Shown: one piece after another, positions 8,778 to 62,146 of the stretch
How the letters are laid out: every line of letters begins with the position of its first letter
Position numbering within the stretch: the stretch's first letter is position 1
From: Parcubacteria group bacterium
Lineage (GTDB): Bacteria; Patescibacteriota; Minisyncoccia; Moranbacterales; UBA11712
Reading direction: 5' to 3'
NCBI GenBank assembly: GCA_041659685.1
Contig: JBAZXV010000001.1
Span: forward strand, 178,771-242,770
Length of the DNA stretch: 64,000 nucleotides
Made by a program: the position numbers and the translations under genes
Notes under the pieces: model-generated
What the model was told of the DNA's origin: nothing
The model's input: the letters and a program-made list of their open reading frames with translations, nothing else
Database searches by the model: none

Positions 8778-11243
8778 CTATAGCAAATCATCAAGTCCCA
8801 CAGCGCAATCATCTCCTTTTCTTATGTCTCCGCCGATTAGCCTTTTGACTATCTTGTCGCCGATTTTATCCTGGATAAAACGATCGACGGATCTGGCTCC
8901 GAATTTGCGGTCAAAGCCCCTGTCGACAACATAGCTTGCGATTTCCGGATCGAACTGGATGTTAATGTTTTCTTCCTTTTTTAGGCGGGCGGCATATTTT
9001 TCGAGCTGTAGTTCGGTCACTTCCATTATTTCTTGTTTCAAAAGAGGATGGAAGAAAATAACTCCATCGAAACGATTGAGAAACTCCGGCCTGAAAATCC
9101 CCTCCTTAATAATATGATCAACCAGTTTCCCCTGAATCTCATCGGGGTTCATCCGGGCATCAACCGCTTCTTTTATGAAATCCGATCCGGCATTGGAGGT
9201 TGCGATAATTATCAAATTTCTGAAATTCACTTTTTTTCCGAAGGCGTCCGTAAGCCATCCTTCGTCAAGAATCTGCAAAAATAAGTTAAGGACATCCGGA
9301 TGAGCTTTTTCTATTTCATCAAGAAGCAGCAATGAGTATGGATTTTCCTTGACCTTATTGGTCATTTGTCCGCTCATATTTATTTCAACCGACCCGAGCA
9401 ATCGGTCAAGCGCTTCGGCTTTTTGATATTCGCTCATATCCAGGCGAATCATCCGGTTTTCGTCTCCGAAATAAGCTTCCGCCAGAGCTTTCGCTGATTC
9501 CGTTTTTCCGACGCCAGTAGGGCCCAAAAAAAGGAAACTGCCCATAGGCTTGGCGGCATTTGCCATGCCGACTCGCGCCCGCCGCATCGTTTCTGCAATT
9601 TGCTTTATGGCAAAATTCTGGCCGATTATCCGCTGATGGAGGATATCTTCAAGACTCAAGAGTTTTTCCTTTTCACCTTCCTGCATCTCGCCCAAGGGAA
9701 CTTTGAATTTTTTTGAGACCACTTCGGCAACTGTTTGCGGACTGATATGCTTTTCAGACGGTTTTTGCGACCAAAAAAGAAAAACTTCCTCCATAAGATC
9801 GAGTGCCTTTTCCGGAAAAGGAGAATCCGTAATGTATCGGTCCGAAAGCTTTACGATCTCCCTCAGAGCCTGGTAAGTGAATACAACCCTTTGCTCTTCA
9901 ATTTTTTTAAGGCCGAAAAGAAGCACTTCCATCGTCTGGTCGGCGCCTATTTCCTCAAGCTGAACTTTATCAAAATATTTGGTTATCCCCTCTTTTTTTT
10001 CTATATTTTCATGGAACTCGGCGGGAGTCGCCAGGCCGATTACTTGAAAAGTGGGAATGCTTAGGAATTCTCCAAGCACGTTTGAAATATCCTCGCCGGG
10101 ATTTTTTTGATTTGAAAGAAAGTGACGGCCGATATTATCAATAACCAAAATTATGTTTCCGGCATACGCCGCTTCAAAAAACATCGACCTCAAAATATCC
10201 TCGATTTGGTTCTGGTCGCTAAGGCCGGAGCACATTTCCCCCATATTGATTTCAAGAACTCTTTTTCCGATCAAATAAGGATTTGATTCCCCTTTTCTGA
10301 TTTTCCTCGCCAAAGAATGGACCAGAGTCCGCTTTCCGACGCCGGCTTCGCCGACAATAAAGGCGCTGTTCTGGCTGGGTCGGGTCAAAATCAGCTCCAA
10401 AAGTTCCATTTCCTGCGCCCGTCCGATTAATTTCGCGTTTTTATATTCCGTCAGATCGCCTTCTGAGAGGTCTGCCGCATACCTGTCCAGATGAACCGTG
10501 TAAGCGTAAGTCCAATACCGGCCAATAGGCAAAGTATTATAGAGGTTTTCTTTGATCCAAAACTTTTTCCTTTTTTCATTTTCCAGCCAGCGCATTGTCT
10601 CCCAATTGATAATTTTTTCAAATTCTTCCGTTGTGACATCGCATTCCCTCAGAATTTCTTTCAACGCATCCGGATCCGGCAAAGAACTTCGGTTGCCTCC
10701 CTCAAAGTCTTTTCCGATTCGCTGCCAGATCCTTGAAAACCATTTTTGCGAAATCAATTTTTCCAAACTGCCTGTCGTATTTTTTTTGGCGGCAGAAAAT
10801 GACCTCCAGGAAACAAGAGTAATGACAACCGCAACGGCGAAGGAAAAACCTTCAATAACAGCGGGAAAATACGACTTTGCGGGAACGGAATAAAAAAGCC
10901 CGACCCCTAAAAATAAAAAGAGCGGCAGGAAAAGCCACATAACCAAAATCATTAATCCCAAAACAAGAGTCGAAATTTCCGCCAACACTCCCAGGAGTAT
11001 GATAAAAGTTCTTACCGTCGCTCCTAAAAATCGGGTAATGAGATTCTCAAAGGCAGACTGCGCCAAAAGAAGCGGATGAAATCCCAGCCGCGAAACATGG
11101 GAAATATCTCTTCTCCAGGATGAAAACAATGTTCGAAAATGCCTGGAAACGCCGAAATACCACCAAAAAAATCCCAGATAATTTTTCCAAATATCCAAAA
11201 GTTTTCTTGTTCCTTGGAGATAATGCCAAGTGAGAAAATTCAT
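8778..11243 (-). CDS. membrane-anchored Clp/Hsp100-like double AAA+ ATPase
   Basis: Two Walker A motifs (GEAGVGKRT; GPTGVGKTESAKALA), a D2 Walker B (LLLLDEIEKAHPDV) and a ClpB/ClpC-like C-terminal D2-small domain. The N-terminal ~150 aa contain hydrophobic helices in place of a Clp N-domain. Start taken at MNFLTWHY (11243). Confidence 0.8.
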   Translation of the reverse strand: MNFLTWHYLQGTRKLLDIWKNYLGFFWWYFGVSRHFRTLFSSWRRDISHVSRLGFHPLLLAQSAFENLITRFLGATVRTFIILLGVLAEISTLVLGLMILVMWLFLPLFLFLGVGLFYSVPAKSYFPAVIEGFSFAVAVVITLVSWRSFSAAKKNTTGSLEKLISQKWFSRIWQRIGKDFEGGNRSSLPDPDALKEILRECDVTTEEFEKIINWETMRWLENEKRKKFWIKENLYNTLPIGRYWTYAYTVHLDRYAADLSEGDLTEYKNAKLIGRAQEMELLELILTRPSQNSAFIVGEAGVGKRTLVHSLARKIRKGESNPYLIGKRVLEINMGEMCSGLSDQNQIEDILRSMFFEAAYAGNIILVIDNIGRHFLSNQKNPGEDISNVLGEFLSIPTFQVIGLATPAEFHENIEKKEGITKYFDKVQLEEIGADQTMEVLLFGLKKIEEQRVVFTYQALREIVKLSDRYITDSPFPEKALDLMEEVFLFWSQKPSEKHISPQTVAEVVSKKFKVPLGEMQEGEKEKLLSLEDILHQRIIGQNFAIKQIAETMRRARVGMANAAKPMGSFLFLGPTGVGKTESAKALAEAYFGDENRMIRLDMSEYQKAEALDRLLGSVEINMSGQMTNKVKENPYSLLLLDEIEKAHPDVLNLFLQILDEGWLTDAFGKKVNFRNLIIIATSNAGSDFIKEAVDARMNPDEIQGKLVDHIIKEGIFRPEFLNRFDGVIFFHPLLKQEIMEVTELQLEKYAARLKKEENINIQFDPEIASYVVDRGFDRKFGARSVDRFIQDKIGDKIVKRLIGGDIRKGDDCAVGLDDLL

Positions 11244-11379: not shown

Positions 11380-11521
11380 TTTCCCTGTTCGATTGTGGGT
11401 GGAGAGGGATGCAAACATCGCTGCTGCGCTCCTTGAAACCCATCGGTTTCAATACTTCCGCCGCGGGAAAACTCCCGTTTTCCCGACCCCTTTCCCTGTT
11501 TGATTGTGGGTGGAGAGGGAT
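11380..11521. repeat. 31-nt direct duplication of the tRNA-Tyr 3' end/trailer bracketing an 80-nt insert
   Basis: tttccctgtt[c/t]gattgtgggtggagagggat occurs at 11380-11410 and 11491-11521 with one mismatch. The second copy overlaps the T-arm/acceptor 3' half of tRNA-Tyr. Confidence 0.85.
11405..11491 (-). ncRNA. candidate structured RNA / miniature element, copy 1
   Basis: On the minus strand there is a closing helix AGGGGT/ATCCCT. Hairpin 1 is GGGAAAAC-GGGA-GTTTTCCC (GNRA loop) and hairpin 2 is TTGAAACC-GATG-GGTTTCAA. A homologous copy lies at 23823-23911. Confidence 0.45.
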
Positions 11522-11589
11522 TCGAACCCCCGTAGCCCGAAGGCGCCAGATTTACAGTCTGGTACAATTGACCGCTCTGTCATCCACCC
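11507..11589 (-). tRNA. tRNA-Tyr (anticodon GTA), long variable arm, no encoded CCA
   Basis: Hand-folded cloverleaf: acceptor GGGTGGA/TCCACCC, anticodon stem CCAGA/TCTGG with loop CTGTAAA, variable arm GCGCCTTCGGGCTAC and T-arm GGGGG-TTCGAAT-CCCTC. Confidence 0.9.
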
Positions 11590-11602
11590 ATGTTCAATTT
11601 TG

Positions 11603-11675
11603 AGCCATCCATCGGAGTCGAACCGATAACCTACTGTTTACAAAACAGTTGCTCTGCCAATTGAGCTAGGATGGC
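11603..11675 (-). tRNA. tRNA-Thr (anticodon TGT), no encoded CCA
   Basis: Hand-folded cloverleaf: acceptor GCCATCC/GGATGGC, D-arm GCTC-AATTGGCA-GAGC, anticodon stem ACTGT/ACAGT with loop TTTGTAA, and T-arm ATCGG-TTCGACT-CCGAT. Confidence 0.9.
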
Positions 11676-44604: not shown

Positions 44605-46095
44605 TTAATAATTTTTGAATTTTCCTTTTTTCACATCCCTCAAAAATTCCATAAAACCTTCCTGCGCTTCCTGTTCAAACATCGCCCTAACGGCCATAGG
44701 CGTGGTCGCCGGTGATTTCCAGTTGTATATGGGTTTTAGGTTTTTTCTCATGATATAAGCGGTTTTGACCAAAAAGTTCGTGTCGCCCTGCACGGGACAG
44801 GCGTAGATATAGTCTTCAGGATCACCGCTTTGATTAAATCCGCCCTTGACCTCAAAAGTAACCGGCAAACCCTGGTTTTTTATTTTCCTGAACGCCTCAA
44901 CCGGATCCGGATAATGATTGAAATTTTTATTGAGATATTTTATATTCTCGTTTTTTATATCTTTGAGTTGATGAGACTCAACCATCACAGTGCGGCTGAG
45001 TTTCCGGTCAAAAAAACAGGCTCCGCCTTTTTGGGGCTTCAAGGGATTTTGGGCCACAATCTCCATCACCATGTTATATCCCTTTTTCCCAAGCTCAAGC
45101 GCCAGAGCAAGACTGGGAAGATCCACGGCGCAGGTGAGATAACCCAGATCCTCGACGTTATAAGAGAGCAGATCGTCATGAGCAGCCAGAATATCCTCAA
45201 ATTCCCGGCTGGAAAGAAAAAATCTCCTGCCTGTGTCCTTCGGATCAACCCTGAAAATGACATTGTCATGTGTTTTTTGCATGATCATCTGTCCGTGATT
45301 GTGAAGCCTCTTGTTTTTTTCCGTTGTTCGATCATAAAAAAGACTTCCTTCTTTGATATACATCCCGTGAAAACTTCTTTGGATCATGAAATATATCCTT
45401 TGCGGGCTAAACCCGAAAAAATTGAACCGCTTGAATTCATCAAGAATTTCTTCCGCCGTCTGCTCGTTCAAAACGATCAAGGCGCTTTGTTTTTCCAGAA
45501 CGTTGTTTGGATTTTTGTTATTCTGCCTTGCAATCCTGGCGACATCATAAGCCATTTGAAGCATGTGCCGATTGCCAAGGGAAATGCTTCGCATCTCCCG
45601 GGGATCTCTTCCTGCGATTTCCAGAACCTTTTTTTTGGTTATTTCTCTTGCTATTCCCCTTCTTTTCTCAGCCAGTTTTTTTCCTTTTACTCCGCCTTTT
45701 TTTAGTTCCTGAAGAGCCTCCTGGCGGATGTGTCCGACAACCTCGTCGAGAGAGAATTGGCTGAGATCGAGGAGATATTTTGTTCCCAACCCCAAACGGG
45801 TGGCTTCCCCCGCCGCCGTATGCTCCCAGAAAAATTTTCCCTCAAGGATCGCTTTTTCCGAGACCGAAGTTCCTATTTTGTCATCATCAAGCACAATTAT
45901 CCTTTTCTCGTCAATCGGCTCGAGATATTTATAATTTTCGTAGGCGTTAATCTTTGGCTGATCTTTTTTTATCTCGGCAATTGTCGTTTTTCCGGCATTC
46001 TTATAAAAACGATGCAGCATCCATTCAATATACCGCGCCACCGAGATGCGGTATTCCTCAAATGAATCGAGATGAATTTTCGGTTTATTGCCCAT
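44605..46095 (-). CDS. putative sugar-1-phosphate nucleotidyltransferase (UDPGP-like); function uncertain
   Basis: 496-aa ORF with AAGEATRLGLGTKY, resembling the G-x-G-T-R-L nucleotide-binding loop. It lies within the polysaccharide locus. Confidence 0.35.
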   Translation of the reverse strand: MGNKPKIHLDSFEEYRISVARYIEWMLHRFYKNAGKTTIAEIKKDQPKINAYENYKYLEPIDEKRIIVLDDDKIGTSVSEKAILEGKFFWEHTAAGEATRLGLGTKYLLDLSQFSLDEVVGHIRQEALQELKKGGVKGKKLAEKRRGIAREITKKKVLEIAGRDPREMRSISLGNRHMLQMAYDVARIARQNNKNPNNVLEKQSALIVLNEQTAEEILDEFKRFNFFGFSPQRIYFMIQRSFHGMYIKEGSLFYDRTTEKNKRLHNHGQMIMQKTHDNVIFRVDPKDTGRRFFLSSREFEDILAAHDDLLSYNVEDLGYLTCAVDLPSLALALELGKKGYNMVMEIVAQNPLKPQKGGACFFDRKLSRTVMVESHQLKDIKNENIKYLNKNFNHYPDPVEAFRKIKNQGLPVTFEVKGGFNQSGDPEDYIYACPVQGDTNFLVKTAYIMRKNLKPIYNWKSPATTPMAVRAMFEQEAQEGFMEFLRDVKKGKFKNY

Positions 46096-49913: not shown

Positions 49914-50772
49914 CTAAAGCTCTCCCCGCATCAGCTTGTTGAGCCGCTCCTTCACTTCTGCATCGCTCGGTTCGCCTGTTTCTCCGGTTGAAACCACCGT
50001 TTTTTCCTGATCGCTTTCCGCTATCGGAAGATTGGACGGAGCGACATTCTGCATATCCCGCGAAGTAATAATCGGTTCGGGAGCCTCTTCCTTTTTCGTC
50101 ACAGCCGAAGTTTCCGCTTCAGACATCTTAAAAACTTTTTTTTCCGGCACAATAACCGGCGAAATTAATGTTTCCGCTGATTCTTTTTTCACTGCAATCT
50201 CGTCTGGAAAATCACTGCTGCCGCGCGGCATCCCGAACGCTTCAGAAAACAGCCAGAAAAGAAAATACAGCAGAAATCCAATGCCGAATCCCCAGCCGAC
50301 ATTTCGGATTACGTCCGGCTTGACCGGGCTCTGAGAAACTTGCGGATCGCTTACGAGTATATATTTAAACGGCGATCCGCCGTAAAGATCTCTCGCATGG
50401 GACGCGATTTTTTCCGGCAAACCGGAAATAACATCTTCTGCCGGTTTTATATCCGCTTCTCCCGCCAGAAAAATAACGGTAATCGTCGAAGAATTTGAAC
50501 TAAGCTCCGTATGGTCGTAATCCTTTGCATCGCTTCCCAGAATATTACCCTTGAAGCTGGGACTATTCATCATTTCTGCCGTGTTTCCCGCCTCAAGATA
50601 GAGATTCTGTCCGGCGGTTGCCGAGTTTCCGGACGGAACAATTACGATCTTTCCGGTTACCTGCCAGTATTTTGTGACAAAGAGCGAGTATAAACGCTGC
50701 CAGCGCAAAAATCAAGGCGGCGAATATCGCCCGGCTAAGTAAAATTTTAAATTGGCCTTGCTGCTGAGGCAT
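49914..50772 (-). CDS. Wzz-like (polysaccharide co-polymerase) 2-TM protein, apparent +1 frameshift near 50679-50681
   Basis: ATG at 50772 gives MPQQQGQFKILLSRAIFAALIFALAAFILAL (TM1) in one frame. The 264-aa ORF (49914-50708, TTG start in the track) continues FVTKYWQVTGKIVIVP ... and carries TM2 (VGWGFGIGFLLYFLFWLF). Removing one T of CTCTTTGTC fuses the two. Confidence 0.5.
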
Positions 50773-52710: not shown

Positions 52711-54000
52711 CTAGCAAACAGACCGAAAAATGTCAATTATATCGCGATTATATTTTTCTGGGTTGAATTTTTCAGCCGGAAACTCAAAATTCGGCTTATT
52801 TCCCGATGCATATGCCATTATTTTGTCCTTAAATTCCTTTTGATTATTCGCCAGATAACCGTTTTGGCCATTTTCTATTATTTCGTCGTATCCTCCGGTT
52901 TTATAACCGACAAAGGGCTTTCCTGCGCTGATCGCTTCAAGTGCAATCAGTCCAAAAGTTTCCGGAAGCCGTGAAGCGGAAACAACGAAAACCGATTCCT
53001 GAATCAATTTATTTAACTCGATATTATTTTTAAAACCGGCATATTCCGTATTTGCGCAAAGCGGAATGTCGAAGCCGCTCTCTTTACTGCCTGCTAGAAC
53101 TAATTTTATCGGCATATCCCTGAAAATCTCGGTCAACTCATCGATATTTTTTTCTTTAGAGATGCGGCCGAAATAGAGAGCGAATTTTTCCCCGCCCGCG
53201 GCTGGCGCGGAATGCGCATTCCGGATATTCGCGAAATGAGGCAGAACTTTAATTTTGCCTTCGGAAAAGCCCGCCTGGACAAGAATATTTCTTACAAACC
53301 GGCTCGGAGCGATGAACAAATCGACATTTTTTTCATAAATGCCGAGCCAACGATGAAAATAAATTCCTAAAACGCTTATTAAGCTTTTAAGATAAGAATT
53401 TTTCACGCATTTTTTCGGAACGCAGTGCCAGTATTTTCCAGCGACGCACTTTTCGCAATAAGGCTTTTCGTCCGCCTTTGCAGAAAAATATTGTTTTTCT
53501 GCGGATTTTTCAGACCCTGAAATTATGTTCTGCTCCGGCGAATGTTCGCCGCAACGGTTCTTTTGCGGTTTATCCCCTGCAACTTCGCAGTTTAAAAGAT
53601 AATTCGGACAAATTAGCTTCCAGTCATGGACAGTCATAACAATCGGAATTCCTCGTTTTTTTATTTCAGGAAGAATTGAGGGGGAAATTTGATGGTAAAT
53701 ATTATGAATATGGACGACATCCGGCCGAAATTCATCCAGAATTTTTGCAATTTTTCGCCTGGCTTCAAATGACCAAAAAATGCGGAGTCCGCCTTTGATT
53801 TTATTTATCGCGCCGCCGTTTTCATAGTCCACCCGGCTGACAAAATGATTTGAAAAATCCGAATGCAGATTTTTCGGATGGCTCATTGAAAAAACAGCGG
53901 CTTCATTTCCGTTTGAATTCAGCAGCTTCACGAGATCGACAAAATGCTTGTCGGCTCCGCCTCGGACATGGTTGAATTTATTGATTTCAAGGATTTTCAT
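52711..54000 (-). CDS. glycosyltransferase family 4 with Cys-rich insert
   Basis: Start MKILEINKF (54000) overlaps the upstream stop (ATGA). It has a C-terminal ETFGLIALEAISAGKPFVG motif and a CEKCVAGKYWHCVPKKC insert. Confidence 0.75.
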   Translation of the reverse strand: MKILEINKFNHVRGGADKHFVDLVKLLNSNGNEAAVFSMSHPKNLHSDFSNHFVSRVDYENGGAINKIKGGLRIFWSFEARRKIAKILDEFRPDVVHIHNIYHQISPSILPEIKKRGIPIVMTVHDWKLICPNYLLNCEVAGDKPQKNRCGEHSPEQNIISGSEKSAEKQYFSAKADEKPYCEKCVAGKYWHCVPKKCVKNSYLKSLISVLGIYFHRWLGIYEKNVDLFIAPSRFVRNILVQAGFSEGKIKVLPHFANIRNAHSAPAAGGEKFALYFGRISKEKNIDELTEIFRDMPIKLVLAGSKESGFDIPLCANTEYAGFKNNIELNKLIQESVFVVSASRLPETFGLIALEAISAGKPFVGYKTGGYDEIIENGQNGYLANNQKEFKDKIMAYASGNKPNFEFPAEKFNPEKYNRDIIDIFRSVC

Positions 54001-55523
54001 TTGTTTTCTTTTGTGTGAATATTTTTGTTTATTTCTTCCGGATAGCCTCCCAGAACAGCCAGTCCTCCAAGGATAATCCAAAAGAATACTGCCAGAAGAT
54101 TCGTTTCAAGATAGGTTTGAAATAAAAAGGCGATCAGATAATTTATAAACAATACTACAAAAACCACTTGAAAAAATTTTATCTCAGCGTTTCCCGCCGG
54201 CCCTTTTCTAGGCTTTCTGATATTGGAATAGAGCGGCCTGAATATTGAATAAAATATCGCGGTTATGAGGGCAATGCTCCAAATTCCCATTTGGATAAAC
54301 ATCGTGAGAAGGGAATTATGGATATTTCGCACTTCAATAAAATCTTTGTATTTCAGCCCAATCTCAACGGAAACCATTTTTCCGTAGCCCAATCCAAAAA
54401 TCAGCGAATGCTGAAAGTCCGTCCAGGCCGCCTCCCAAACGGATTTGCGCCAATTGAGGCTTTCATCGGAACTGACTTGCGCCGTGGAAACAAATCTTTG
54501 TCCGGCCACTCCGGCCGCTCCCCTGAAAACTTTGGAAACTCCGGATTGGGGGAAGATAAAGGATATGTAGGCGGCCAGAATAAACAGCACGGCCCCGAAA
54601 AAAGCGTAATGAAGAAGCATGGTCTTTAAGGTCTTGCTGTTTTTTTGAGGAAGAAGATAAAAAAGAAATAAGACGGAAATAAAAAGGCTTATCCAAAGAT
54701 GGCGCATGAGAGACCCGATAATGCCCGCGGTCCAGATTGGAATAAGGGCATATAAAAATTTATTGACTTTTGATTTTTTAAAACTCAGCCAGACAAAAGA
54801 GGCCAGCAAAGCCATTGAGAAATAAAAAGCGTGCGGAAAAGCCAAAATTCTTGTCCCCGGAGTGGAAAGAGGGGTAAATTCCGTCCAAAGGCCTTCGCCG
54901 CGGATAATCCCTATGAAAATGAAAATGGATGCGGCGGATGCGGCGGCCAAAAAAAACTTAAGGAGCTGAAAAATTTTTTCTCTTTCACTGAACAGGAAAA
55001 TAAAGGCAAAATAGAAAAGTCCGTAGAAAGAATAATTCTTGAATGTGCTGAAAGCGATGGCTTCGTCGGCGTGAAGAAAAAAAGCGCTCGCGAGAAAATA
55101 AACCGCGCTCGCGAGAATGAAGATTGCAATCAAATAGTCAACAATTTTCAGTTTCCTCGGCAAGCCGTTTTTTATGATCTGATAAATCGTTCCCAGCATC
55201 ACGCCGGCAAACAGGATGTCAATGGGGTATATTTTATATTCCGTCCGGTTCCAATATATCGGAACCAAAGTGAAAAATCTTTCGAAAATCACGGTCAGAA
55301 AAACAATGGCATAAAATCCGCTTCTTGGAAAAACAATCGAAAGCGCAAAACCGGCAGCCATTGCAAAAAAATAGATCGGGAAATTGAACCCGGCAACAAA
55401 ATTAGCCAGAATAAAAAGCGAAACCGCCGCAATAATGAAAACAGCGGTGGAGGTTTCTATGAATTCGCTTTTAGCGATTTTGACTGAAATAGTTCGCATA
55501 ATGTTGGGTATATTTTTTCGCAA
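53997..55523 (-). CDS. O-antigen ligase/polymerase-like (Wzy/WaaL family) polytopic membrane protein
   Basis: About 12 hydrophobic helices and a large loop with GLGYG and HNSLL motifs typical of the Wzy_C domain. Confidence 0.7.
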   Translation of the reverse strand: MRKNIPNIMRTISVKIAKSEFIETSTAVFIIAAVSLFILANFVAGFNFPIYFFAMAAGFALSIVFPRSGFYAIVFLTVIFERFFTLVPIYWNRTEYKIYPIDILFAGVMLGTIYQIIKNGLPRKLKIVDYLIAIFILASAVYFLASAFFLHADEAIAFSTFKNYSFYGLFYFAFIFLFSEREKIFQLLKFFLAAASAASIFIFIGIIRGEGLWTEFTPLSTPGTRILAFPHAFYFSMALLASFVWLSFKKSKVNKFLYALIPIWTAGIIGSLMRHLWISLFISVLFLFYLLPQKNSKTLKTMLLHYAFFGAVLFILAAYISFIFPQSGVSKVFRGAAGVAGQRFVSTAQVSSDESLNWRKSVWEAAWTDFQHSLIFGLGYGKMVSVEIGLKYKDFIEVRNIHNSLLTMFIQMGIWSIALITAIFYSIFRPLYSNIRKPRKGPAGNAEIKFFQVVFVVLFINYLIAFLFQTYLETNLLAVFFWIILGGLAVLGGYPEEINKNIHTKENK

Positions 55524-55630: not shown

Positions 55631-56083
55631 TTATTTGCGCTTACGCCCGAATGGATCAGGCGTGACTTTCCAGGCGGTGACGAAGAACTCCTGGGCAGCA
55701 TAATCCCCTGTGACGGGACTGATGACGCCAACCTGGATCTTGGCCCATTTCACGGCACCGAAATCAAACTTGAGGATGTAGGTGTTGCCACCCGCATACT
55801 CAACCTTGCCGTCTTTCCAGTCGCCGTCGATATTATAGCGGGCGACCACGAAATCCCAATGGACCCGACGATCAAACTCGATCGCCATGCGGTAGCAAGT
55901 AATCCCGGAAACTGGCCCTGGTTCATTGTCTGGCCAGAGACCCTTCACAGTCCCCATAATTTGCCATCTGGGCATATCGTCCACGTATCTCACCCAGCTA
56001 AAGTCGGCCGCTTGACTACAGACTGCCCCGGCCAGCAAGAGAGCAAACCACACAAACAAGCAGACTATGCATTTTTTAAACAT
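55631..56083 (-). CDS. secreted hypothetical protein (150 aa), GC-rich island
   Basis: Signal peptide MFKKCIVCLFVWFALLLAGAVCSQA with predicted cleavage before ADFSW. No motif recognised. Confidence 0.55.
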   Translation of the reverse strand: MFKKCIVCLFVWFALLLAGAVCSQAADFSWVRYVDDMPRWQIMGTVKGLWPDNEPGPVSGITCYRMAIEFDRRVHWDFVVARYNIDGDWKDGKVEYAGGNTYILKFDFGAVKWAKIQVGVISPVTGDYAAQEFFVTAWKVTPDPFGRKRK

Positions 56084-56101
56084 AACTCACAACCTCGCAG
56101 T

Positions 56102-56614
56102 TTATTGAATTTCAATATTGATGTTGCCGCCGCCGTTTTCCATGGTGACAGCTATGCCATACATCCCAAAGGCCAAGTCTGAGTTGGTTCCCCAGTATTT
56201 CATGACCTTTTCAGGCCAAAAGGAGAAGAGAAACATTCTCTCGACATCCAGAGCATCGTTGACATTCGCTCCCCGAGCAGATGCCACATAAACAAGAGAT
56301 GTTTTGATGAGGTCTTTAGCCGCCTTTTGATCCGGTGGCATCGAGGCAAAGAGGGACTTTATTTTCTTCCCCGTTTCATCCGCGGTCATAATGACCGTGA
56401 TCCTGCCGCCAATGGTCATTTTCTGAAAAGACCGCGATTCCGAATACCAGTGTCCGCTGGTGAATTCGAAACCCTGCTCTAAAAAGGATCCGGTCGCCAG
56501 AATCGCCGAATGGGTCAAGCTGCCGACTTTTTCTTCACTGGCATTGGAAATATTCGCCAGGCAGAAAGTCGCGATGAGGACCATAATAGAAATTAAAAGA
56601 GCCGATTTTTTCAT
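56102..56614 (-). CDS. secreted hypothetical protein (170 aa), GC-rich island
   Basis: Signal peptide MKKSALLISIMVLIATFCLANISNA. No motif recognised. Confidence 0.55.
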   Translation of the reverse strand: MKKSALLISIMVLIATFCLANISNASEEKVGSLTHSAILATGSFLEQGFEFTSGHWYSESRSFQKMTIGGRITVIMTADETGKKIKSLFASMPPDQKAAKDLIKTSLVYVASARGANVNDALDVERMFLFSFWPEKVMKYWGTNSDLAFGMYGIAVTMENGGGNINIEIQ

Positions 56615-57721: not shown

Positions 57722-57755
57722 GAGCCGTATCAGTACTGACACGGCTCAATTTTTT
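57722..57755. terminator. hairpin terminator downstream of 57819 gene (bidirectional-looking)
   Basis: GAGCCGT-N12-ACGGCTC with T-rich flanks on both strands. Confidence 0.55.
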
Positions 57756-57818: not shown

Positions 57819-58301
57819 TTACTTAACGTTCAGCGACGGTGGCCAGGGGTTGCCGTTGGGATCTAGTCCCCGGTCCTTGTCGGCATAGAGACCACCCTCC
57901 AGTTTGTAGACATATTGACCAGAGTTGACTGCGCCCAGGGATTCTACCGGAATCAACAGCCAGTATTTCCCGTGCTTAAACTGGATGCCGGTGTAAGAAC
58001 CCATATCAACCTTTTCGCCAGTCTTGACACTCCGGTTGGGCCCAAACAAGACCACCTCGGAGGGCTGCCAGCCTTGAGAATTCTTCACCGCGAAAGAAAT
58101 ACTGTTGCCTTCCTTGACGGCCGTAAATACGGTGCCCGCGGGCGGCAGAAACGTTTTGGACTTCGCGGTGTCAACCACGATTTTGACGTTACCTTGGGCC
58201 AAAGCCGTGGTCGTCATAAAGAACATGGAGGCGCAGAGCAGGACGCTCATGAAAACTCCGATACCCAAAATCTGCCACTCGGTTTTCCTTAATTTATTCA
58301 T
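57819..58301 (-). CDS. secreted hypothetical protein (160 aa), GC-rich island
   Basis: ATG at 58301 follows a GAGAGGAG SD. Signal/TM segment WQILGIGVFMSVLLCASMFFMTTTALA. The track start at 58448 overlaps the upstream gene. Confidence 0.55.
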   Translation of the reverse strand: MNKLRKTEWQILGIGVFMSVLLCASMFFMTTTALAQGNVKIVVDTAKSKTFLPPAGTVFTAVKEGNSISFAVKNSQGWQPSEVVLFGPNRSVKTGEKVDMGSYTGIQFKHGKYWLLIPVESLGAVNSGQYVYKLEGGLYADKDRGLDPNGNPWPPSLNVK

Positions 58302-58395: not shown

Positions 58396-60963
58396 TCAGT
58401 CCTGATCAGGTCCCGCTTGTCTGACATCCTTTTTTTCAGGAACCGCAACAGGATTCTGTGGCTTTTCCAGAAACTGGGGCGGAGCGGACGACTCTGCCTT
58501 GGGTGTTTCCGGAGTTATTGGTTGTTCCGGCTTAACTTCTGCCGGAGTTTGAGGCGGCATAGCAGGCGGTTCCGCCGGCTTGGCCTCTGGTTTTTCCGGA
58601 ATTGATGGAATAATTATTTTTCCGTCCGGAACCTCAGGCAGAACAGGCTGTTCCACCTTGGGCGCATCCGGAACCGGCGTCGGAGCCTGGGCAGGTTGCT
58701 CAGGCTTGTCCGGAGTGATTGGTTGCTCCGGCTTGGTTTCTTGCGGAGCCGGGATTGGTAGCGCCGGAACCTTGATCGGCGTTTCCGGCTTGACTGCCGG
58801 ACACCGCTCCCTCAACTTCTTTTTACGTTTCGGCGGTTTTTTTACTTTTACCGGCGGAGCTTTTTCAACTGCGGGAGGACAGATAATTTTCGGCTCAGCC
58901 GGAATTATCGGTGCTGGAGGTAAAACCGCAGGAACAATCGGCTCAATTTCCGGCGTGTCCCAAGGAACTTCTTTGGTCCCGCATTCCACCATCGCGCCCT
59001 GGATGGTCCAAAATACGCGATAAAAATCGACAGAATCCAGATAGTAGTTTCTTTTCCCAAAATATCGGCCGTAGGAGAGGTATACTCCCCCAACTTCGAC
59101 CTGCACTTTGCCTCCGCCGCCCTTGGGGCCATGGCGGAAACGCAGAAAGGCCGGGCCCGCCGATATTTTGAACAGGTCATCGCACGGCGATTGATACAGG
59201 ACCGGCATAATACCGGCATGGAAAAACCCGTCCGTCTCCCAGAGCAGGAAGGCCTTCGCTCCCGGGAGCAGCTTGCCATATTTTCCGCTCTTCACCGGCT
59301 TCCACCAAAATTCCGTGGCGGCGTCAACCGTTGCATAGCGGCGGGACATCCGATAGTTAAAATCCCCTTTTTCCCAGCGTCGGCCCGCAAGAAGGCCAAT
59401 CGTCGTATCCGTCCCGCCCCAATCATGGCGGGTGATAATCTCCGGCCAAATGCCGAATGAACGGCTACAGCCTGATCCGGAGAATTCGGACGGGTGAACT
59501 TGATACTCATACCACCCGAACTTTGCCGCAGGTCCGACTCCCAAAAATACGTTGGGCGCCAATTCTGCTTCGAACGGCCGCAAAGCGATATTATGCCATG
59601 CAAACCGTCCCGAGAGATTCGGCTCACGGCTGATTCCACCTCCAATCGGTATTTCTACCCGTTTCGGATCGACCCACCAACGAATGCGCTGAGGAAGATC
59701 GATGTAGTCATTGAAGGTTTGACCTTGGCCTTTGACATCGGCAACAAACTGCCGATAGGGAATCTCACCGCCGATGTTGGCATTGTTTTCCCGGACATAC
59801 GACTGTCCATAACTTTTTTCGCTCTTCGCCGGGTTTGGATAGGCGCCGACTTTTTCATCTTTCCGGAAGGATTGCCAGAAAGCAAAATCCTTCTCGAAAA
59901 GCTCTACGCCATTTGTCTCGGTAGAGAGGCAAGGCGTGTTGTGATTGCGCAGAACGGTGGATGTAAATAATGCTGATCCAGCGCTCATTGCCATCCCAAT
60001 CGGCTCAGGACTGATTGTCAGCCCCCCATCATCGGCAAAGCGAACATAGCCACGGCGCCGGTCGGGTTTTTTGCAGGCCTCGACTAATTCGCCACGATCT
60101 GCCGCATAGCGGATCCCGTCCATCGGGACATAATACTTATTAAGGCCGGCAGCCCGAATAACTCCATCGAGCTGGCCTTTGTTGATGAGGCTCGTTCTCT
60201 GGAGACTATCAAGGCTCGTGCCATAGGTCTCGGCAACCAGAGCCATATACTCAGGATCTTTTTCTTCATACATTCCGCCCTGAAGTTTGGCATACTTGGT
60301 GCCTTCCAACCCCCAAACAACCAACTCACCACGTTTGTCTCCGCCAATGGCATTGTTGAAAAAACGGTCGCCACTGACAATTTTCCAATCGGAGGCAGAA
60401 CCAGTGAGTTCGGAGTTGAAATAGACTACGACCGGAAGCTTGCCATTCTTGTCGCTGCCGGACGGCAGAATAAAACCGTCCTCAATCCGACCAGAGCCGG
60501 AATTGACGGCCACCGCCTTCATGGTCTTTCCCTTAGCAAATTTAAGCGCAGGTGTGGGGATAAAACCTCTCACGGCAGTGACTTTTTTGGAGTCTTGCGG
60601 AGGTTTTTTGGTTGACCATGAATCACGAGGGGTGCAGAAGGGGGATTTCCATAATTTCCCATCTTCCCTATCCCCGTTCTCCGGGTTTTCCCACTTGTTG
60701 GGTTTGCGGGCCGTGTAAAACTGCCCGCTCTCCTGGTTCAGCCTTTCCTGGTAGATTTGGCCGTCACGAGAATTCTTCCACTCGCGGACCACACCGGGAT
60801 CGGCTTTTTCGGCGGAAGCGGCTTCTGAAACCTCTCCTCCGCTGCCGGAGCACTTATACCATCCCGGTTCGGAACCGGGAATTGGGTCTGCAGCTTTTGC
60901 TTGGCCGCTGGCAAAAACCAGCGAAAGGCCGAGCAGAGCAGCGATAAAAGACTTTCTGACCAT
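58396..60963 (-). CDS. large secreted protein (855 aa) with Pro-rich C-terminal tail, GC-rich island
   Basis: Signal peptide MVRKSFIAALLGLSLVFASGQAKA, a beta-strand-rich central region and a C-terminal ~170-aa Pro-rich region with KPEQPITP twice. Confidence 0.65.
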   Translation of the reverse strand: MVRKSFIAALLGLSLVFASGQAKAADPIPGSEPGWYKCSGSGGEVSEAASAEKADPGVVREWKNSRDGQIYQERLNQESGQFYTARKPNKWENPENGDREDGKLWKSPFCTPRDSWSTKKPPQDSKKVTAVRGFIPTPALKFAKGKTMKAVAVNSGSGRIEDGFILPSGSDKNGKLPVVVYFNSELTGSASDWKIVSGDRFFNNAIGGDKRGELVVWGLEGTKYAKLQGGMYEEKDPEYMALVAETYGTSLDSLQRTSLINKGQLDGVIRAAGLNKYYVPMDGIRYAADRGELVEACKKPDRRRGYVRFADDGGLTISPEPIGMAMSAGSALFTSTVLRNHNTPCLSTETNGVELFEKDFAFWQSFRKDEKVGAYPNPAKSEKSYGQSYVRENNANIGGEIPYRQFVADVKGQGQTFNDYIDLPQRIRWWVDPKRVEIPIGGGISREPNLSGRFAWHNIALRPFEAELAPNVFLGVGPAAKFGWYEYQVHPSEFSGSGCSRSFGIWPEIITRHDWGGTDTTIGLLAGRRWEKGDFNYRMSRRYATVDAATEFWWKPVKSGKYGKLLPGAKAFLLWETDGFFHAGIMPVLYQSPCDDLFKISAGPAFLRFRHGPKGGGGKVQVEVGGVYLSYGRYFGKRNYYLDSVDFYRVFWTIQGAMVECGTKEVPWDTPEIEPIVPAVLPPAPIIPAEPKIICPPAVEKAPPVKVKKPPKRKKKLRERCPAVKPETPIKVPALPIPAPQETKPEQPITPDKPEQPAQAPTPVPDAPKVEQPVLPEVPDGKIIIPSIPEKPEAKPAEPPAMPPQTPAEVKPEQPITPETPKAESSAPPQFLEKPQNPVAVPEKKDVRQAGPDQD

Positions 60964-61037
60964 GGTCTTACACTCCTTTGCCTCGCTTCCCTTTCGTTTC
61001 TTCCTAAGCCAGACTCGGCGCGAATTTTTTTCATTTA

Positions 61038-61102
61038 ACCCGGGGAACTTAACCCGGACATTAAACGAAGAAAATTCAGTTTTTATGACCCGGGGAACTT
61101 AA
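61038..61102. repeat. 15-nt direct repeat x2 upstream of the 855-aa gene
   Basis: ACCCGGGGAACTTAA at 61038-61052 and 61088-61102, 50 nt apart. Confidence 0.75.
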
Positions 61103-61330
61103 TCACCCAGAATGAAACACCATAAGAACTTTGCTTTTGTCTTGCTTTTGGAAAATCCGGAGGAGTCGCAAGAAATTTTTGTGGGACAGCCGCCAGGCGG
61201 CTGCCATATATTGACTTTATACTGACAAAGTTGTAAATGAGCTGGCCCTCGTTTTCAAGGGTTGAGTGTCCCAAAGCCGCGGCTTTGAAAAACTCAGCCT
61301 CCGAAAAGATGGTTTTCAAGCCATCACGTT

Positions 61331-61371
61331 AAAGGCAAAAGTGGAATTCGCAGCTAAACCGCAAATTCCAC
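61331..61371 (-). terminator. terminator of the Wzz-like gene
   Basis: 8-bp stem GTGGAATT/AATTCCAC (61341-61371) followed by TTTTGCCTTT on the minus strand. Confidence 0.55.
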
Positions 61372-61411
61372 CTGCCTTTCAGTGTGTTGCTCTTAAGGTT
61401 CAACTTGAAAT

Positions 61412-62146
61412 TTACGTTTCTTTGAAATTGACTATCTCTCCCGTTTCTACGTCGATAATGTTTCCGGAATCGTCTTTCGTTATCGTTCTTCCCCAAATGC
61501 CGTTTATATCTTTTCCGCTGCCCGCTAGTTTCCCCTGACTAACAAGGCCTGCATAAAATGAAATTGCAAATATAAGGAAAAGTCCCACAAGAAATGATGC
61601 GCCGACCGAAAACGCCAGCATTGCGGCTCCCGGATTATTCTTTATCACCGGCGCGTTAATCATCCGCACTTCAATTTTTTGGTTTTCGCTGATAAAAAGA
61701 TTATTATTGTCCGCCAAAACTCCGGCCACTGTTTTTGAGATATTTTCTGCGTTCGTTCGATCACTCGCCAAGACCCTGAGGTGACTCATCCCCAGCTCCA
61801 TATTAAGCGATGTCCGAACCGTTTTTGCCCAGGATTTCATCCTGCTCTCCCGATCAATGGGCAAAATTTTAGAAAGTTCCGGATAACCTTCCGCAGCCTT
61901 ATTAAGAAAAGTTTCCGTGTAGATGCTTTCCGAAAGAAGCTTCGAAAAATGTTCGGTCGACTTCGCCAGAGTATAGGAATCAACGAATCCTTCCTGGTTT
62001 TGAATGACCAGCACGTCCAAATTGGACTGATATTTGGGAGTAAAAAGCATCATCCCCCAAAAAGTCACGGCCGCAAAAAGAAGGCCTGCCAATATCATGA
62101 TTCCTGATTTTTGCCTTAAAATAGCGGCAATTTGAGAATAATTCAT
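61412..62146 (-). CDS. Wzz-like polysaccharide chain-length determinant (2-TM PCP)
   Basis: TM1 (IMILAGLLFAAVTFWGMMLF), a ~150-aa extracytoplasmic domain and TM2 (AMLAFSVGASFLVGLFLIFAISFYAGLV). Confidence 0.6.
   Translation of the reverse strand: MNYSQIAAILRQKSGIMILAGLLFAAVTFWGMMLFTPKYQSNLDVLVIQNQEGFVDSYTLAKSTEHFSKLLSESIYTETFLNKAAEGYPELSKILPIDRESRMKSWAKTVRTSLNMELGMSHLRVLASDRTNAENISKTVAGVLADNNNLFISENQKIEVRMINAPVIKNNPGAAMLAFSVGASFLVGLFLIFAISFYAGLVSQGKLAGSGKDINGIWGRTITKDDSGNIIDVETGEIVNFKET

Follow-up and report, generated by a model that had tools for sequence, protein, structure and literature searches.

A lineage-restricted exported protein with a predicted 12-stranded outer-membrane-type beta-barrel, encoded within a wall-polysaccharide locus of a Parcubacteria group bacterium

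Introduction

Outer-membrane-type beta-barrels characterise outer membranes and organelles, and their insertion depends on Omp85/BAM insertases. Type Va autotransporters (BrkA 3QQ2, Hbp 3AEH, AIDA-I 4MEE, EspP and NalP) combine a Sec signal peptide with a 12-stranded translocator that lies at the C-terminal end, carries an aromatic beta-signal and is preceded by a pore-occupying helix and a beta-helical passenger, and their hosts possess both an outer membrane and BAM. In the type Ve inverse autotransporters (intimin, invasin) an Ig-like/lectin passenger follows the barrel. A different logic, in which a membrane barrel is joined by an extended spacer to a wall-binding element, is seen in OmpA/OprF (barrel, Pro-rich hinge, peptidoglycan-binding domain) and OmpM/SlpA (SLH, coiled coil, barrel), whose barrels have 8 or more than 14 strands and whose wall-binding domain is OmpA_C (PF00691) or SLH (PF00395). 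KdgM, NanC, Tsx and FapF are small 12-stranded channels that occur as stand-alone barrels of diderms. Recombining surface-antigen cassettes within conserved envelope loci are known from the S-layer slpA types of Clostridioides difficile and from capsule/O-antigen serotype loci. To our knowledge, host attachment and nutrient uptake by CPR episymbionts are mostly not understood.

Patescibacteria are regarded as monoderm (PMC12102498; 10.1101/2021.05.31.446380; PMC11809585). In the literature that we searched there was no report of OMP-type barrels, porins or autotransporters native to Patescibacteria; the single mention of an autotransporter concerned non-CPR homologs of giant proteins. Here we describe a gene for which an earlier account made from the letters alone (the sequence-only reading) had proposed a barrel-like module, and had called such a module unexpected in a monoderm CPR-type host. 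The barrel prediction is puzzling, as these ultra-small bacteria are regarded as monoderm (PMC12102498).

Results

The gene lies on the minus strand at 58396..60963 of the 64-kb stretch of DNA that was analysed as a whole (the window). It is a complete CDS with an ATG start and a stop codon at 58396-58398, and encodes exactly the 855-aa protein that had been claimed. The product matches P0001 exactly ('MAG: hypothetical protein WC831_01225 [Parcubacteria group bacterium]'), whose gene is carried on a 291-kb contig. A Sec-type signal peptide occupies residues 1-24 (60892..60963, minus strand), the sole hydrophobic stretch with KD>1.2, and AKA|ADP, where cleavage had been foreseen, lies at residues 22-27; the predicted cut falls after MVRKSFIAALLGLSLVFASGQAKA, the protein's sole strongly hydrophobic segment. 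The n/h/c layout and the AxA are kept in all full-length family members (alignment A1). There is no lipobox at the signal peptide, and a hydrophobicity scan of the 855-aa protein found no TM helix beyond it. The earlier remark that some 620 aa after the signal peptide carry no recognisable motif agrees with the searches: Pfam gave no match to the complete protein at E<=0.1 or to its two domains at E<=10, and the PDB gave no match by sequence. The same Pfam and PDB searches gave no match to a known soluble enzyme family.

Residues 439-646 (59026..59649, minus strand; barrel proper about 450-646), which are 16% aromatic and 14% Gly, are confidently predicted by AlphaFold2 to adopt a 12-stranded barrel fold of the outer-membrane type. 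The domain model covers residues 430-700 (pLDDT 82, rising to about 90 in the core) and shows long antiparallel strands in a closed meander, plus one helix. All five domain models have pLDDT 74-82, with about 90 over 210 residues, and were built from a shallow alignment (12 sequences, Neff about 3), on which AlphaFold2 may favour regular beta folds too strongly. Overall confidence was poor in the first full-length model (pLDDT 41.5); the barrel was recovered also in an independent full-length run. Since the domain model superposes 196 residues at 2.3 Å onto a closed 12-strand barrel, a fit that an open sheet could not achieve, we infer that the barrel is closed.

AlphaFold-type modelling had been proposed as a check in the sequence-only reading, and it returned a barrel for residues 439-646. 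The likeness of the aromatic strands to a transmembrane beta-barrel is supported, with face-specific substitution (see below) in agreement. The module's limits had to be redrawn, from about residues 480-690 to about 439-646. All five strand-like segments that had been quoted are present, at residues 472, 520, 569, 619 and 645; the fifth, VDFYRVFWTIQGAMVE (645-660), is modelled not as a strand but as an alpha-helix capping the barrel. A sequence match to OMP families, also proposed as a check, failed to appear for any of the 12 barrel-domain sequences (Pfam, E<=10; PDB profile, E<=10).

The amphipathic helix follows the last strand at residues 647-662 (58978..59025, minus strand; helix 218-233 of the domain model, pLDDT about 76-84) and is itself followed by a conserved K-E-V/I-P-W-D motif (664-669). 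It is the sole helix adjoining the barrel, with residues 430-438 modelled as coil. R649 and E665 are invariant in alignment A1, and the segment 647-669 is 83-96% identical within allele types.

Independently of AlphaFold2, the barrel strands show a strict two-residue periodicity. In the family alignment they carry apolar belts with aromatics, in line with the outward belt of about 9-11 residues per strand, the aromatic girdles and the polar lumen that are generic for transmembrane beta-barrels; the in/out orientation here was taken from superposition statistics and sequence patterns and not from model coordinates. Among close alleles the apolar face changes 6 times as often as the polar face (p = 8e-6), remaining hydrophobic; the comparison across allele types gave a trend only (p 0.07), and it was the close allele pairs that were decisive. 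Strands of the N-terminal domain have no such face-specific pattern. A variable yet hydrophobic apolar face together with a conserved polar face matches the expectation for a lipid-exposed surface around a conserved lumen. Moreover, the strong conservation of the lumen face and the helix within allele types points to purifying selection.

Structure comparison showed that the fold is best matched by type V autotransporter translocators, with type Ve scoring below type Va, and OmpA-type barrels are also among the structural matches of the barrel domain. The Sec signal peptide and 12-stranded fold are common to this protein and type Va, whereas identity to those translocators is 8-13%, with no PF03797 or other sequence match, and the architecture differs. 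The barrel here is internal, ending at residue 646 of 855, and lacks a terminal beta-signal (the protein ends in ...GPDQD and homologs in ...PKxM, while tail-less members run ~30 aa past the helix). The helix comes after the barrel rather than before it, no beta-helical passenger is evident, the poorly modelled N-terminal region showing no beta-helix in the full-length model, and the host lineage is regarded as having neither outer membrane nor BAM. In place of the type Ve passenger there is a low-complexity, disordered Pro-rich tail (pLDDT <35) that is absent in some members, and in the 855-aa protein Pfam found neither a LysM domain, which type Ve carries on the periplasmic side, nor a Big domain. 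The small diderm channels resemble the barrel in strand number but have no sequence relationship to it, and a channel function of the internal barrel here is putative. OmpA/OprF and OmpM/SlpA share the barrel-spacer-wall logic, with the Pro-rich segment here directly after the barrel; however, this barrel has 12 strands, Pfam detects neither of their wall-binding domains, the putative binding element is only a polybasic patch, and spacer and patch are dispensable in three branches of the family.

That tail spans residues 666-855 (58399..58968, minus strand) and is predicted to be disordered from its composition (27% Pro, 13% Lys, 10% Glu) and pLDDT. The sequence-only reading was right about its Pro richness (6.9% elsewhere in the protein) and short on its length, given as about 170 aa and found to be 190 aa. 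PxxP occurs 22 times against 14.3 +/- 2.7 in shuffles, with zero occurrences in the first 665 residues. KPEQPITP is present twice, as had been reported, at residues 744-751 (58711..58734) and 811-818 (58510..58533), both on the minus strand; a third KPEQP stands at residue 753. The comparison that had been drawn with TonB spacers holds for composition only, namely alternating Glu-Pro/Lys-Pro segments that are predicted to be extended and vary in length, whereas the N-terminal TM anchor and TonB_C domain of TonB are both absent from the 855-aa protein (Pfam, hydrophobicity). A conserved polybasic patch, KVKKPPKRKKKLRERC, absent from the earlier account, occupies residues 706-721 (58801..58848, minus strand), with a net charge of +10 over 706-725. 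All members with a tail, whatever their allele type, have the patch in the same place, and types whose barrels share 21-38% identity still share about 51% in the proximal tail. By member the tail is missing, about 100 aa or, as here, 190 aa long; the 73%-identical ortholog L003 has a short one, and P0010, P0012 and L011 have none. As these represent three branches, the tail cannot be a general tether. Gram-positive surface proteins of the LPXTG/sortase or C-terminal TM kind carry a C-terminal motif, a hydrophobic segment and a basic tail, an arrangement not found here: no family member inspected has an LPXTG-like motif near its C-terminus, and the last 78 aa of the 855-aa protein contain no TM anchor (maximum KD19 -0.28).

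The mature protein starts with a conserved motif, ADPIPGxEPGWYxC, at residues 25-40 (60844..60891, minus strand), which is invariant in alignment A1, C38 included. The motif is 75-88% identical even between allele types with bodies 21-38% identical, and is carried also by the most divergent member, L011. It is followed by an orphan region, residues 41-436 (59656..60843, minus strand), for which profile A5 found no PDB or Pfam relative, matches to these databases being at chance level (best E 0.4). This region is beta-rich at ~58-230, has a conserved small-residue helix and then PCLS at ~321-347, and ends in a variable low-complexity linker at ~350-436, which in P0012 is swapped for an Ala/Pro/Lys low-complexity stretch. 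Confidence here is moderate in the full-length model (pLDDT 55-74 for 125-260, <35 for 270-460).

The gene forms its own two-gene transcription unit inside a rhamnose wall-polysaccharide locus of Gram-positive type. Inspection of the upstream sequence (60964..61373, minus strand) revealed a terminator hairpin (61339-61373) and then a ~370-nt leader. The leader contains a promoter-like block and a GC hairpin, has AAGTTCCCCGGGT in two copies and includes the ribosome-binding site AAAGGAG. L003 and L001 retain parts of it; an Rfam search of the 64-kb window gave two tRNAs and no match in the leader. Downstream lies a co-transcribed ORF for a small secreted beta-rich protein of 160 aa (57819..58301, minus strand), and a terminator-like hairpin (57722..57747, minus strand) closes the unit. 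A secreted protein of 123-216 aa is found at this place in every locus examined and is hypervariable. Co-variation of this ORF with the large gene was considered and rejected, as the two vary independently. The upstream neighbour (61412..62146, minus strand; weak Pfam Wzz match) encodes a Wzz/CpsC-like polysaccharide co-polymerase with TM segments at 14-37 and 172-205; in all other loci the corresponding protein shares 64-70% identity with it. The downstream neighbour (53997..55523, minus strand; Pfam and synteny) encodes a Wzy_C membrane protein (O-antigen ligase/polymerase-like) and opens the GT4, TIG and RmlABCD part of the locus, which reaches down to about 46114. Among the annotated genes of the 64-kb window and its flanks there are no outer-membrane biogenesis or outer-membrane-related genes. 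Therefore, neither a membrane nor an insertase that could serve such a barrel is known in a host regarded as monoderm.

Lastly, we sought homologs and their taxonomic distribution, as had been suggested. Among 1.84 billion proteins the family comprises 12 representatives, its named genome records are all Moraniibacteriota or Parcubacteria MAGs, and nothing similar was found outside this clade. A profile search over the word index added no further members, and a broader 14-sequence profile, overrun by low-complexity candidates, gave fewer matches. At least 8 loci, which come from independent studies, carry the gene in this slot. Its allele types are deeply divergent (26-39% identity) and lie between flanks that are 60-88% identical, and the distribution of types is discordant with the flanking genes. 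The gene therefore behaves as a swappable surface cassette, with recombination deduced from identity matrices of 8 loci and not from breakpoint mapping. The slpA and capsule/O-antigen cassettes show the same divergent types between conserved genes, the same discordance with flank phylogeny, the same siting beside wall-glycan genes and the same conserved termini around a variable body, but their protein family and fold are unrelated. The GC content of the gene is 0.54-0.57 versus 0.42-0.46 in the surrounding DNA. Recent horizontal import from a diderm was rejected as its source, as orthologs diverged to about 30% identity have likewise elevated GC.

Discussion

The export signal, the barrel fold, the hydrophobic-belt pattern, the cassette-like evolution and the locus context are computational results; lipid embedding, topology, the part played by the tail and any adhesin or pore function are proposals that go beyond them. 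We think it somewhat probable that the protein is a lineage-restricted, Sec-exported envelope protein whose barrel sits in a lipid layer, as a variable surface anchor, adhesin or pore module. Its core would consist of the invariant N-terminal motif, the ~400-aa orphan ectodomain, the 12-stranded barrel and the capping helix, to which many members add the Pro-rich tail. The barrel would be the protein's only membrane anchor, with a conserved lumen probably lined by Gly and charges. Both chain ends and the tight 2-3-residue turns would lie on one (cis) side, and two extended polar hairpins (about 485-502 and 527-543) on the opposite side, like those of OMPs. Conserved cell components may be bound by the N-terminal motif and by the polybasic proximal tail; the obvious candidate would be an anionic polymer of the wall, produced through the flanking rhamnose-polysaccharide genes, with the Pro-rich segment as an extended spacer. 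The linkage to the polysaccharide locus is confined to fairly close relatives, however, and may reflect history and not function. The divergent body would be the exposed part, under diversifying selection, and the variable module may work at the cell's interface with phages or the host cell. The lipid layer could be the cell's own membrane, which the barrel would enter from outside, an outer layer not yet recognised or the membrane of a host. A more specific version, which is possible and which we put forward tentatively, is that monoderm Moranbacteria make a lipid-embedded OMP-type 12-stranded barrel without BAM, which inserts from outside into the host membrane or an unrecognised outer lipid layer and is tethered to the wall by the N-terminal motif and polybasic tail; it would be a self-inserting attachment or conduit device with its exposed parts swapped as antigenic cassettes.

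It seems rather unlikely that the barrel is real and lies outside any bilayer, in a wall-associated or S-layer-like protein whose hydrophobic exterior self-assembles or binds a lipid-linked or hydrophobic ligand while the polybasic tail sits on the rhamnose wall polysaccharide. This would suit a secreted protein that looks abundant, with a promoter-like leader, strong ribosome-binding site and terminators of its own, and that is encoded inside a wall-polysaccharide locus. The cassette-like allele types recall S-layer genes, and S-layers on CPR cells were reportedly described by Luef et al. in 2015. The organism is regarded as monoderm (PMC12102498), which also fits a barrel outside any bilayer.

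We doubt that the closed barrel is a modelling artefact and the region a beta-rich sandwich, solenoid or amyloid-like sheet. The shallow alignment, the low pLDDT of the first full-length model and the lack of sequence homology to any OMP would allow for this, but the five domain models and the independent full-length run agree, the superposition is beyond the reach of an open sheet, and neither the strand periodicity nor the face-specific substitution bias derives from AlphaFold2. Very unlikely, in our view, is a role as outer conduit of the adjacent Wzy-dependent polysaccharide pathway, as a functional analogue of OPX or porin partners such as Wza, PgaA, BcsC or Wzp. The gene can hardly be that of a common Gram-negative autotransporter or OMP, whether through mis-binning of a diderm contig or as a recent, non-functional horizontal acquisition, as its high GC and autotransporter-like fold might suggest, because the 291-kb contig also holds housekeeping genes, the slot is shared by the independent loci of one clade with nothing similar beyond it, the elevated GC extends to distant orthologs, the lumen face and helix are under purifying selection, and Pfam membership, a terminal barrel and a beta-signal are all lacking.

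Returning to the lipid-layer reading, were the barrel prediction over-confident, the family would be a cautionary case for structure-based annotation of orphan proteins. The monoderm status of CPR figures in current scenarios of outer-membrane gain and loss. An OMP-like barrel that is conserved and under selection in CPR could mean that there is an envelope layer not yet recognised, that a barrel can work without BAM in a cytoplasmic or foreign membrane, or that the fold has a use outside membranes. If the reading of a BAM-less, lipid-embedded barrel is true, Patescibacteria would have their first described transmembrane beta-barrel. Moreover, its cassette-like evolution marks the large gene and its small partner as a likely phage- or host-specificity determinant in an uncultured lineage.

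A secreted protein with a predicted beta-barrel

The sequence-only reading of the large gene was borne out in its primary-sequence claims. Window positions 58396-60963 on the minus strand encode, from an ATG start, the 855-aa protein described, which is identical to a hypothetical protein on a 291-kb contig of a 'Parcubacteria group bacterium' MAG. The proposed signal peptide, with cleavage between AKA and ADP, is present (AKA-ADP at residues 22-27), residues 1-24 being the sole strongly hydrophobic stretch. So are the five quoted strand-like segments (residues 472, 520, 569, 619 and 645) and the two copies of KPEQPITP (residues 744 and 811). The tail (residues 666-855) is indeed Pro-rich, with 27% Pro versus 6.9% elsewhere in the protein; it holds 22 PxxP motifs compared with 14.3 +/- 2.7 in shuffles and 0 in residues 1-665, and carries a +10 polybasic cluster (residues 706-725). 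Nor was any recognised motif overlooked: there were 0 matches to Pfam families or PDB chains, and separate domain profiles searched against both gave no match even at E<=10.

The beta-barrel suggested earlier is supported in silico by both a structure model and a face-specific substitution pattern. Full-length AF2 modelling was poor (pLDDT 41.5), with long hairpins at residues 464-641 already visible. Modelled alone from a 12-sequence domain alignment, residues 430-700 reached a pLDDT of 81.9 (~90 over model residues 10-220) and a pTM of 0.71, forming a continuous up-and-down meander of long strands with a single helix after it.

As a mean over non-redundant family members, almost all strands show 4-7 alternating never-polar positions with aromatics at both ends, for example V472-L474-V476-P478-A480-F482-W484 and F598-I600-A602-P604-F606. 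The positions between them are occupied by invariant Gly and Trp residues and by conserved charges. The discriminating test was the substitution rate per strand face in three independent close-allele pairs. Changes per site were 37/150 on the apolar face versus 6/120 on the other (OR 6.2, p 8e-6), a bias that persisted without Gly-Gly columns (p 2e-4), and across all five close pairs hydrophobicity was kept in 48 of 59 apolar-face changes. Control strands of the N-domain gave 11/76 versus 17/87 changes. The apolar face changes more yet stays hydrophobic, whereas a buried core would be expected to be the conserved face. Lipid exposure predicts a surface constrained solely to remain greasy, with a conserved lumen inside it. 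Turns PN470, HDW513, KPV555 and GG625 lie on the same side as both chain ends, with polar hairpin extensions (~485-502 and ~527-543) on the opposite side; from the turn lengths we infer an OMP-like polarity.

Two alternatives bear on these data. A structural barrel standing outside any membrane is the stronger of the two, yet it is unlikely. That the barrel is an artefact of modelling, to which the weak full-length prediction might point, is less probable again, with the substitution bias alongside the model.

Locus context

The large gene lies in its own unit, which follows a 16-bp terminator hairpin 3' of the Wzz-like gene. A leader of ~370 nt with an AAAGGAG ribosome-binding site comes next (window 60964-61373, minus strand), partly conserved across genera, with equivalents at 9640-10012 and 7660-8015 of the homologous loci L003 and L001. 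Its parts are, in order, a promoter-like block, the CCGCCTGGCGG hairpin, AAAAAATTTCTTGCGACTC and, in two direct copies, a short palindromic element that reads AAGTTCCCCGGGT in the window versus CAGTGGGAGCTCACTG-like in L003 and L001, the arrangement being retained. No Rfam model matched this leader, which may act in regulation or as an operator pair; across the 64-kb window Rfam matched only two adjacent tRNA genes (11507-11675, minus strand). A 160-aa small secreted protein lies 3' of the large gene, before a second terminator.

Neighbouring genes encode DUF4012, a two-TM Wzz/CpsC-like protein, YkuD, Wzy_C, GT4 glycosyltransferases, a TIG protein and RmlA/B/C/D. Together they form a rhamnose wall-polysaccharide locus of Gram-positive style, in agreement with a proposal for Patescibacteria (PMC11809585), and its gene order is preserved in every long locus. 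Elsewhere the window carries housekeeping genes and none for OM biogenesis. A polysaccharide conduit is a further alternative, and an improbable one.

The Wzz-like co-polymerase (61412-62146, minus strand) is short (244 aa, two TM segments), resembling Gram-positive CpsC/Wzd proteins; its Pfam Wzz match fell under the gathering threshold (20.1 vs 25.5 bits), and no tyrosine kinase partner was seen among the ORFs scanned. Between YkuD and Wzy (55631-56614, minus strand) lie two small signal-peptide proteins of 170 and 150 aa, the latter gene of high GC (0.53, GC3 0.64). Neither had a Pfam match or, by tblastn, a counterpart in L001 or L002, and they look like insertions specific to the window within this variable surface island. 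ORFs of 496 and 264 aa within the polysaccharide locus (44605-46095 and 49914-50708, both minus strand) also lack a Pfam match; the 264-aa ORF shows just 39-52% identity between genomes, compared with 59-81% for their glycosyltransferases.

Family distribution and architecture

Word-index searches of 5.8 billion clusters returned six relatives at 28-40% identity, and an exhaustive HMMER scan across 1.84 billion representatives yielded no more than 12 family proteins, several being fragments. In 185,579 species genomes the family occurs in 4 loci, all labelled Moraniibacteriota or Parcubacteria; further loci came from a metagenome scan with a neighbouring gene as bait. With these labels, a mis-binned or imported OMP is highly improbable.

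Members share a signal peptide, an invariant ADPIPGxEPGWYxC, a ~400-aa N-region with a variable linker, the beta-rich domain, a helix and K-E-(V/I)-P-W-D. In the majority a Pro-rich tail with a VKVKKxxxxKKxLRxRC patch follows. It is missing in family members P0010 and P0012 and in locus L011, and short in the 73%-identical ortholog of L003, so the tail is accessory, outside the family core. The tail-less L011 C-terminal domain nevertheless aligns with the barrel profile over 220 columns (hhalign E 6e-5).

Most tail-bearing members, from three allele types, share a P-(K/N)-x-M carboxy-terminus (compared in P0003, P0004, P0005, P0007, P0013, P0014 and the L003 and L015 proteins). The window protein ends in VRQAGPDQD (58399-58430) after a ~90-aa additional Pro-rich extension; the motif may serve in terminal sorting or processing and have been lost or replaced in this allele. 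In MAG JAZDKQ01 the large gene is split over two contigs (L005 4059-6206 and L006 2-430), one terminating within the gene and the other beginning in the tail. Assemblies therefore break at the repetitive tail, and database entries marked 'partial', P0006 and P0014 among them, are fragments of full genes.

Cassette-like evolution

Across eight loci the flanks share 60-88% identity, yet the large gene splits into four types: the window and L003 (74% identity within type); L002, L008 and L013 (62-71%); L001 and L015 (82%); and L011, a single member. Alleles of different types share 26-39% identity. The distribution of types contradicts the flanks: L003, L002 and L001 carry three different types although their DUF4012 and Wzz genes are 78-87% identical. 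Across types the N-terminal motif is 80-88% identical, the proximal tail ~51% and the body 17-38%.

The small ORF (window 57819-58301, minus strand) is always 3' of the large gene, secreted and beta-rich (123-216 aa in the window, L001, L002, L003, L008, L011 and L015). It is hypervariable, with types distributed independently of those of the large gene: identity between L002 and L001 is 71% for the small ORF and 33% for the large gene, and between the window and L003 it is 32% and 74%, respectively. This independence implies mosaic recombination within the island. In three genomes the large gene (window 58396-60963, L001 8001-10283, L002 8001-10292), diverged to ~30% identity, has a GC of 0.54-0.57 (GC3 up to 0.66) versus 0.42-0.46 for the locus, explained in part by Gly/Ala/Pro/Arg/Trp composition; the window small ORF is likewise GC-rich (0.525). 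Type discordance, conserved ends, the hypervariable small ORF and high GC are jointly the behaviour of a surface-exposed determinant that is swapped or retained in cassette form. The conserved ends of the protein would contact conserved cell components, and its variable body would be turned towards phages or hosts.

Taken together, the best reading of the models and comparisons is an exported envelope protein, probably anchored by a lipid-embedded OMP-type barrel. Membership of an autotransporter family was rejected on sequence membership and on the terminal barrel with beta-signal; as to linker position, residues 430-438 are modelled as coil and the only adjacent helix is C-terminal to the barrel. 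CPR bacteria are treated as monoderm (PMC12102498; 10.1101/2021.05.31.446380), and our literature search turned up no account of OMP-type barrels native to CPR. Both the sequence family and its architecture are new, the underlying fold is a known one, and the lineage in which it is predicted is unexpected.
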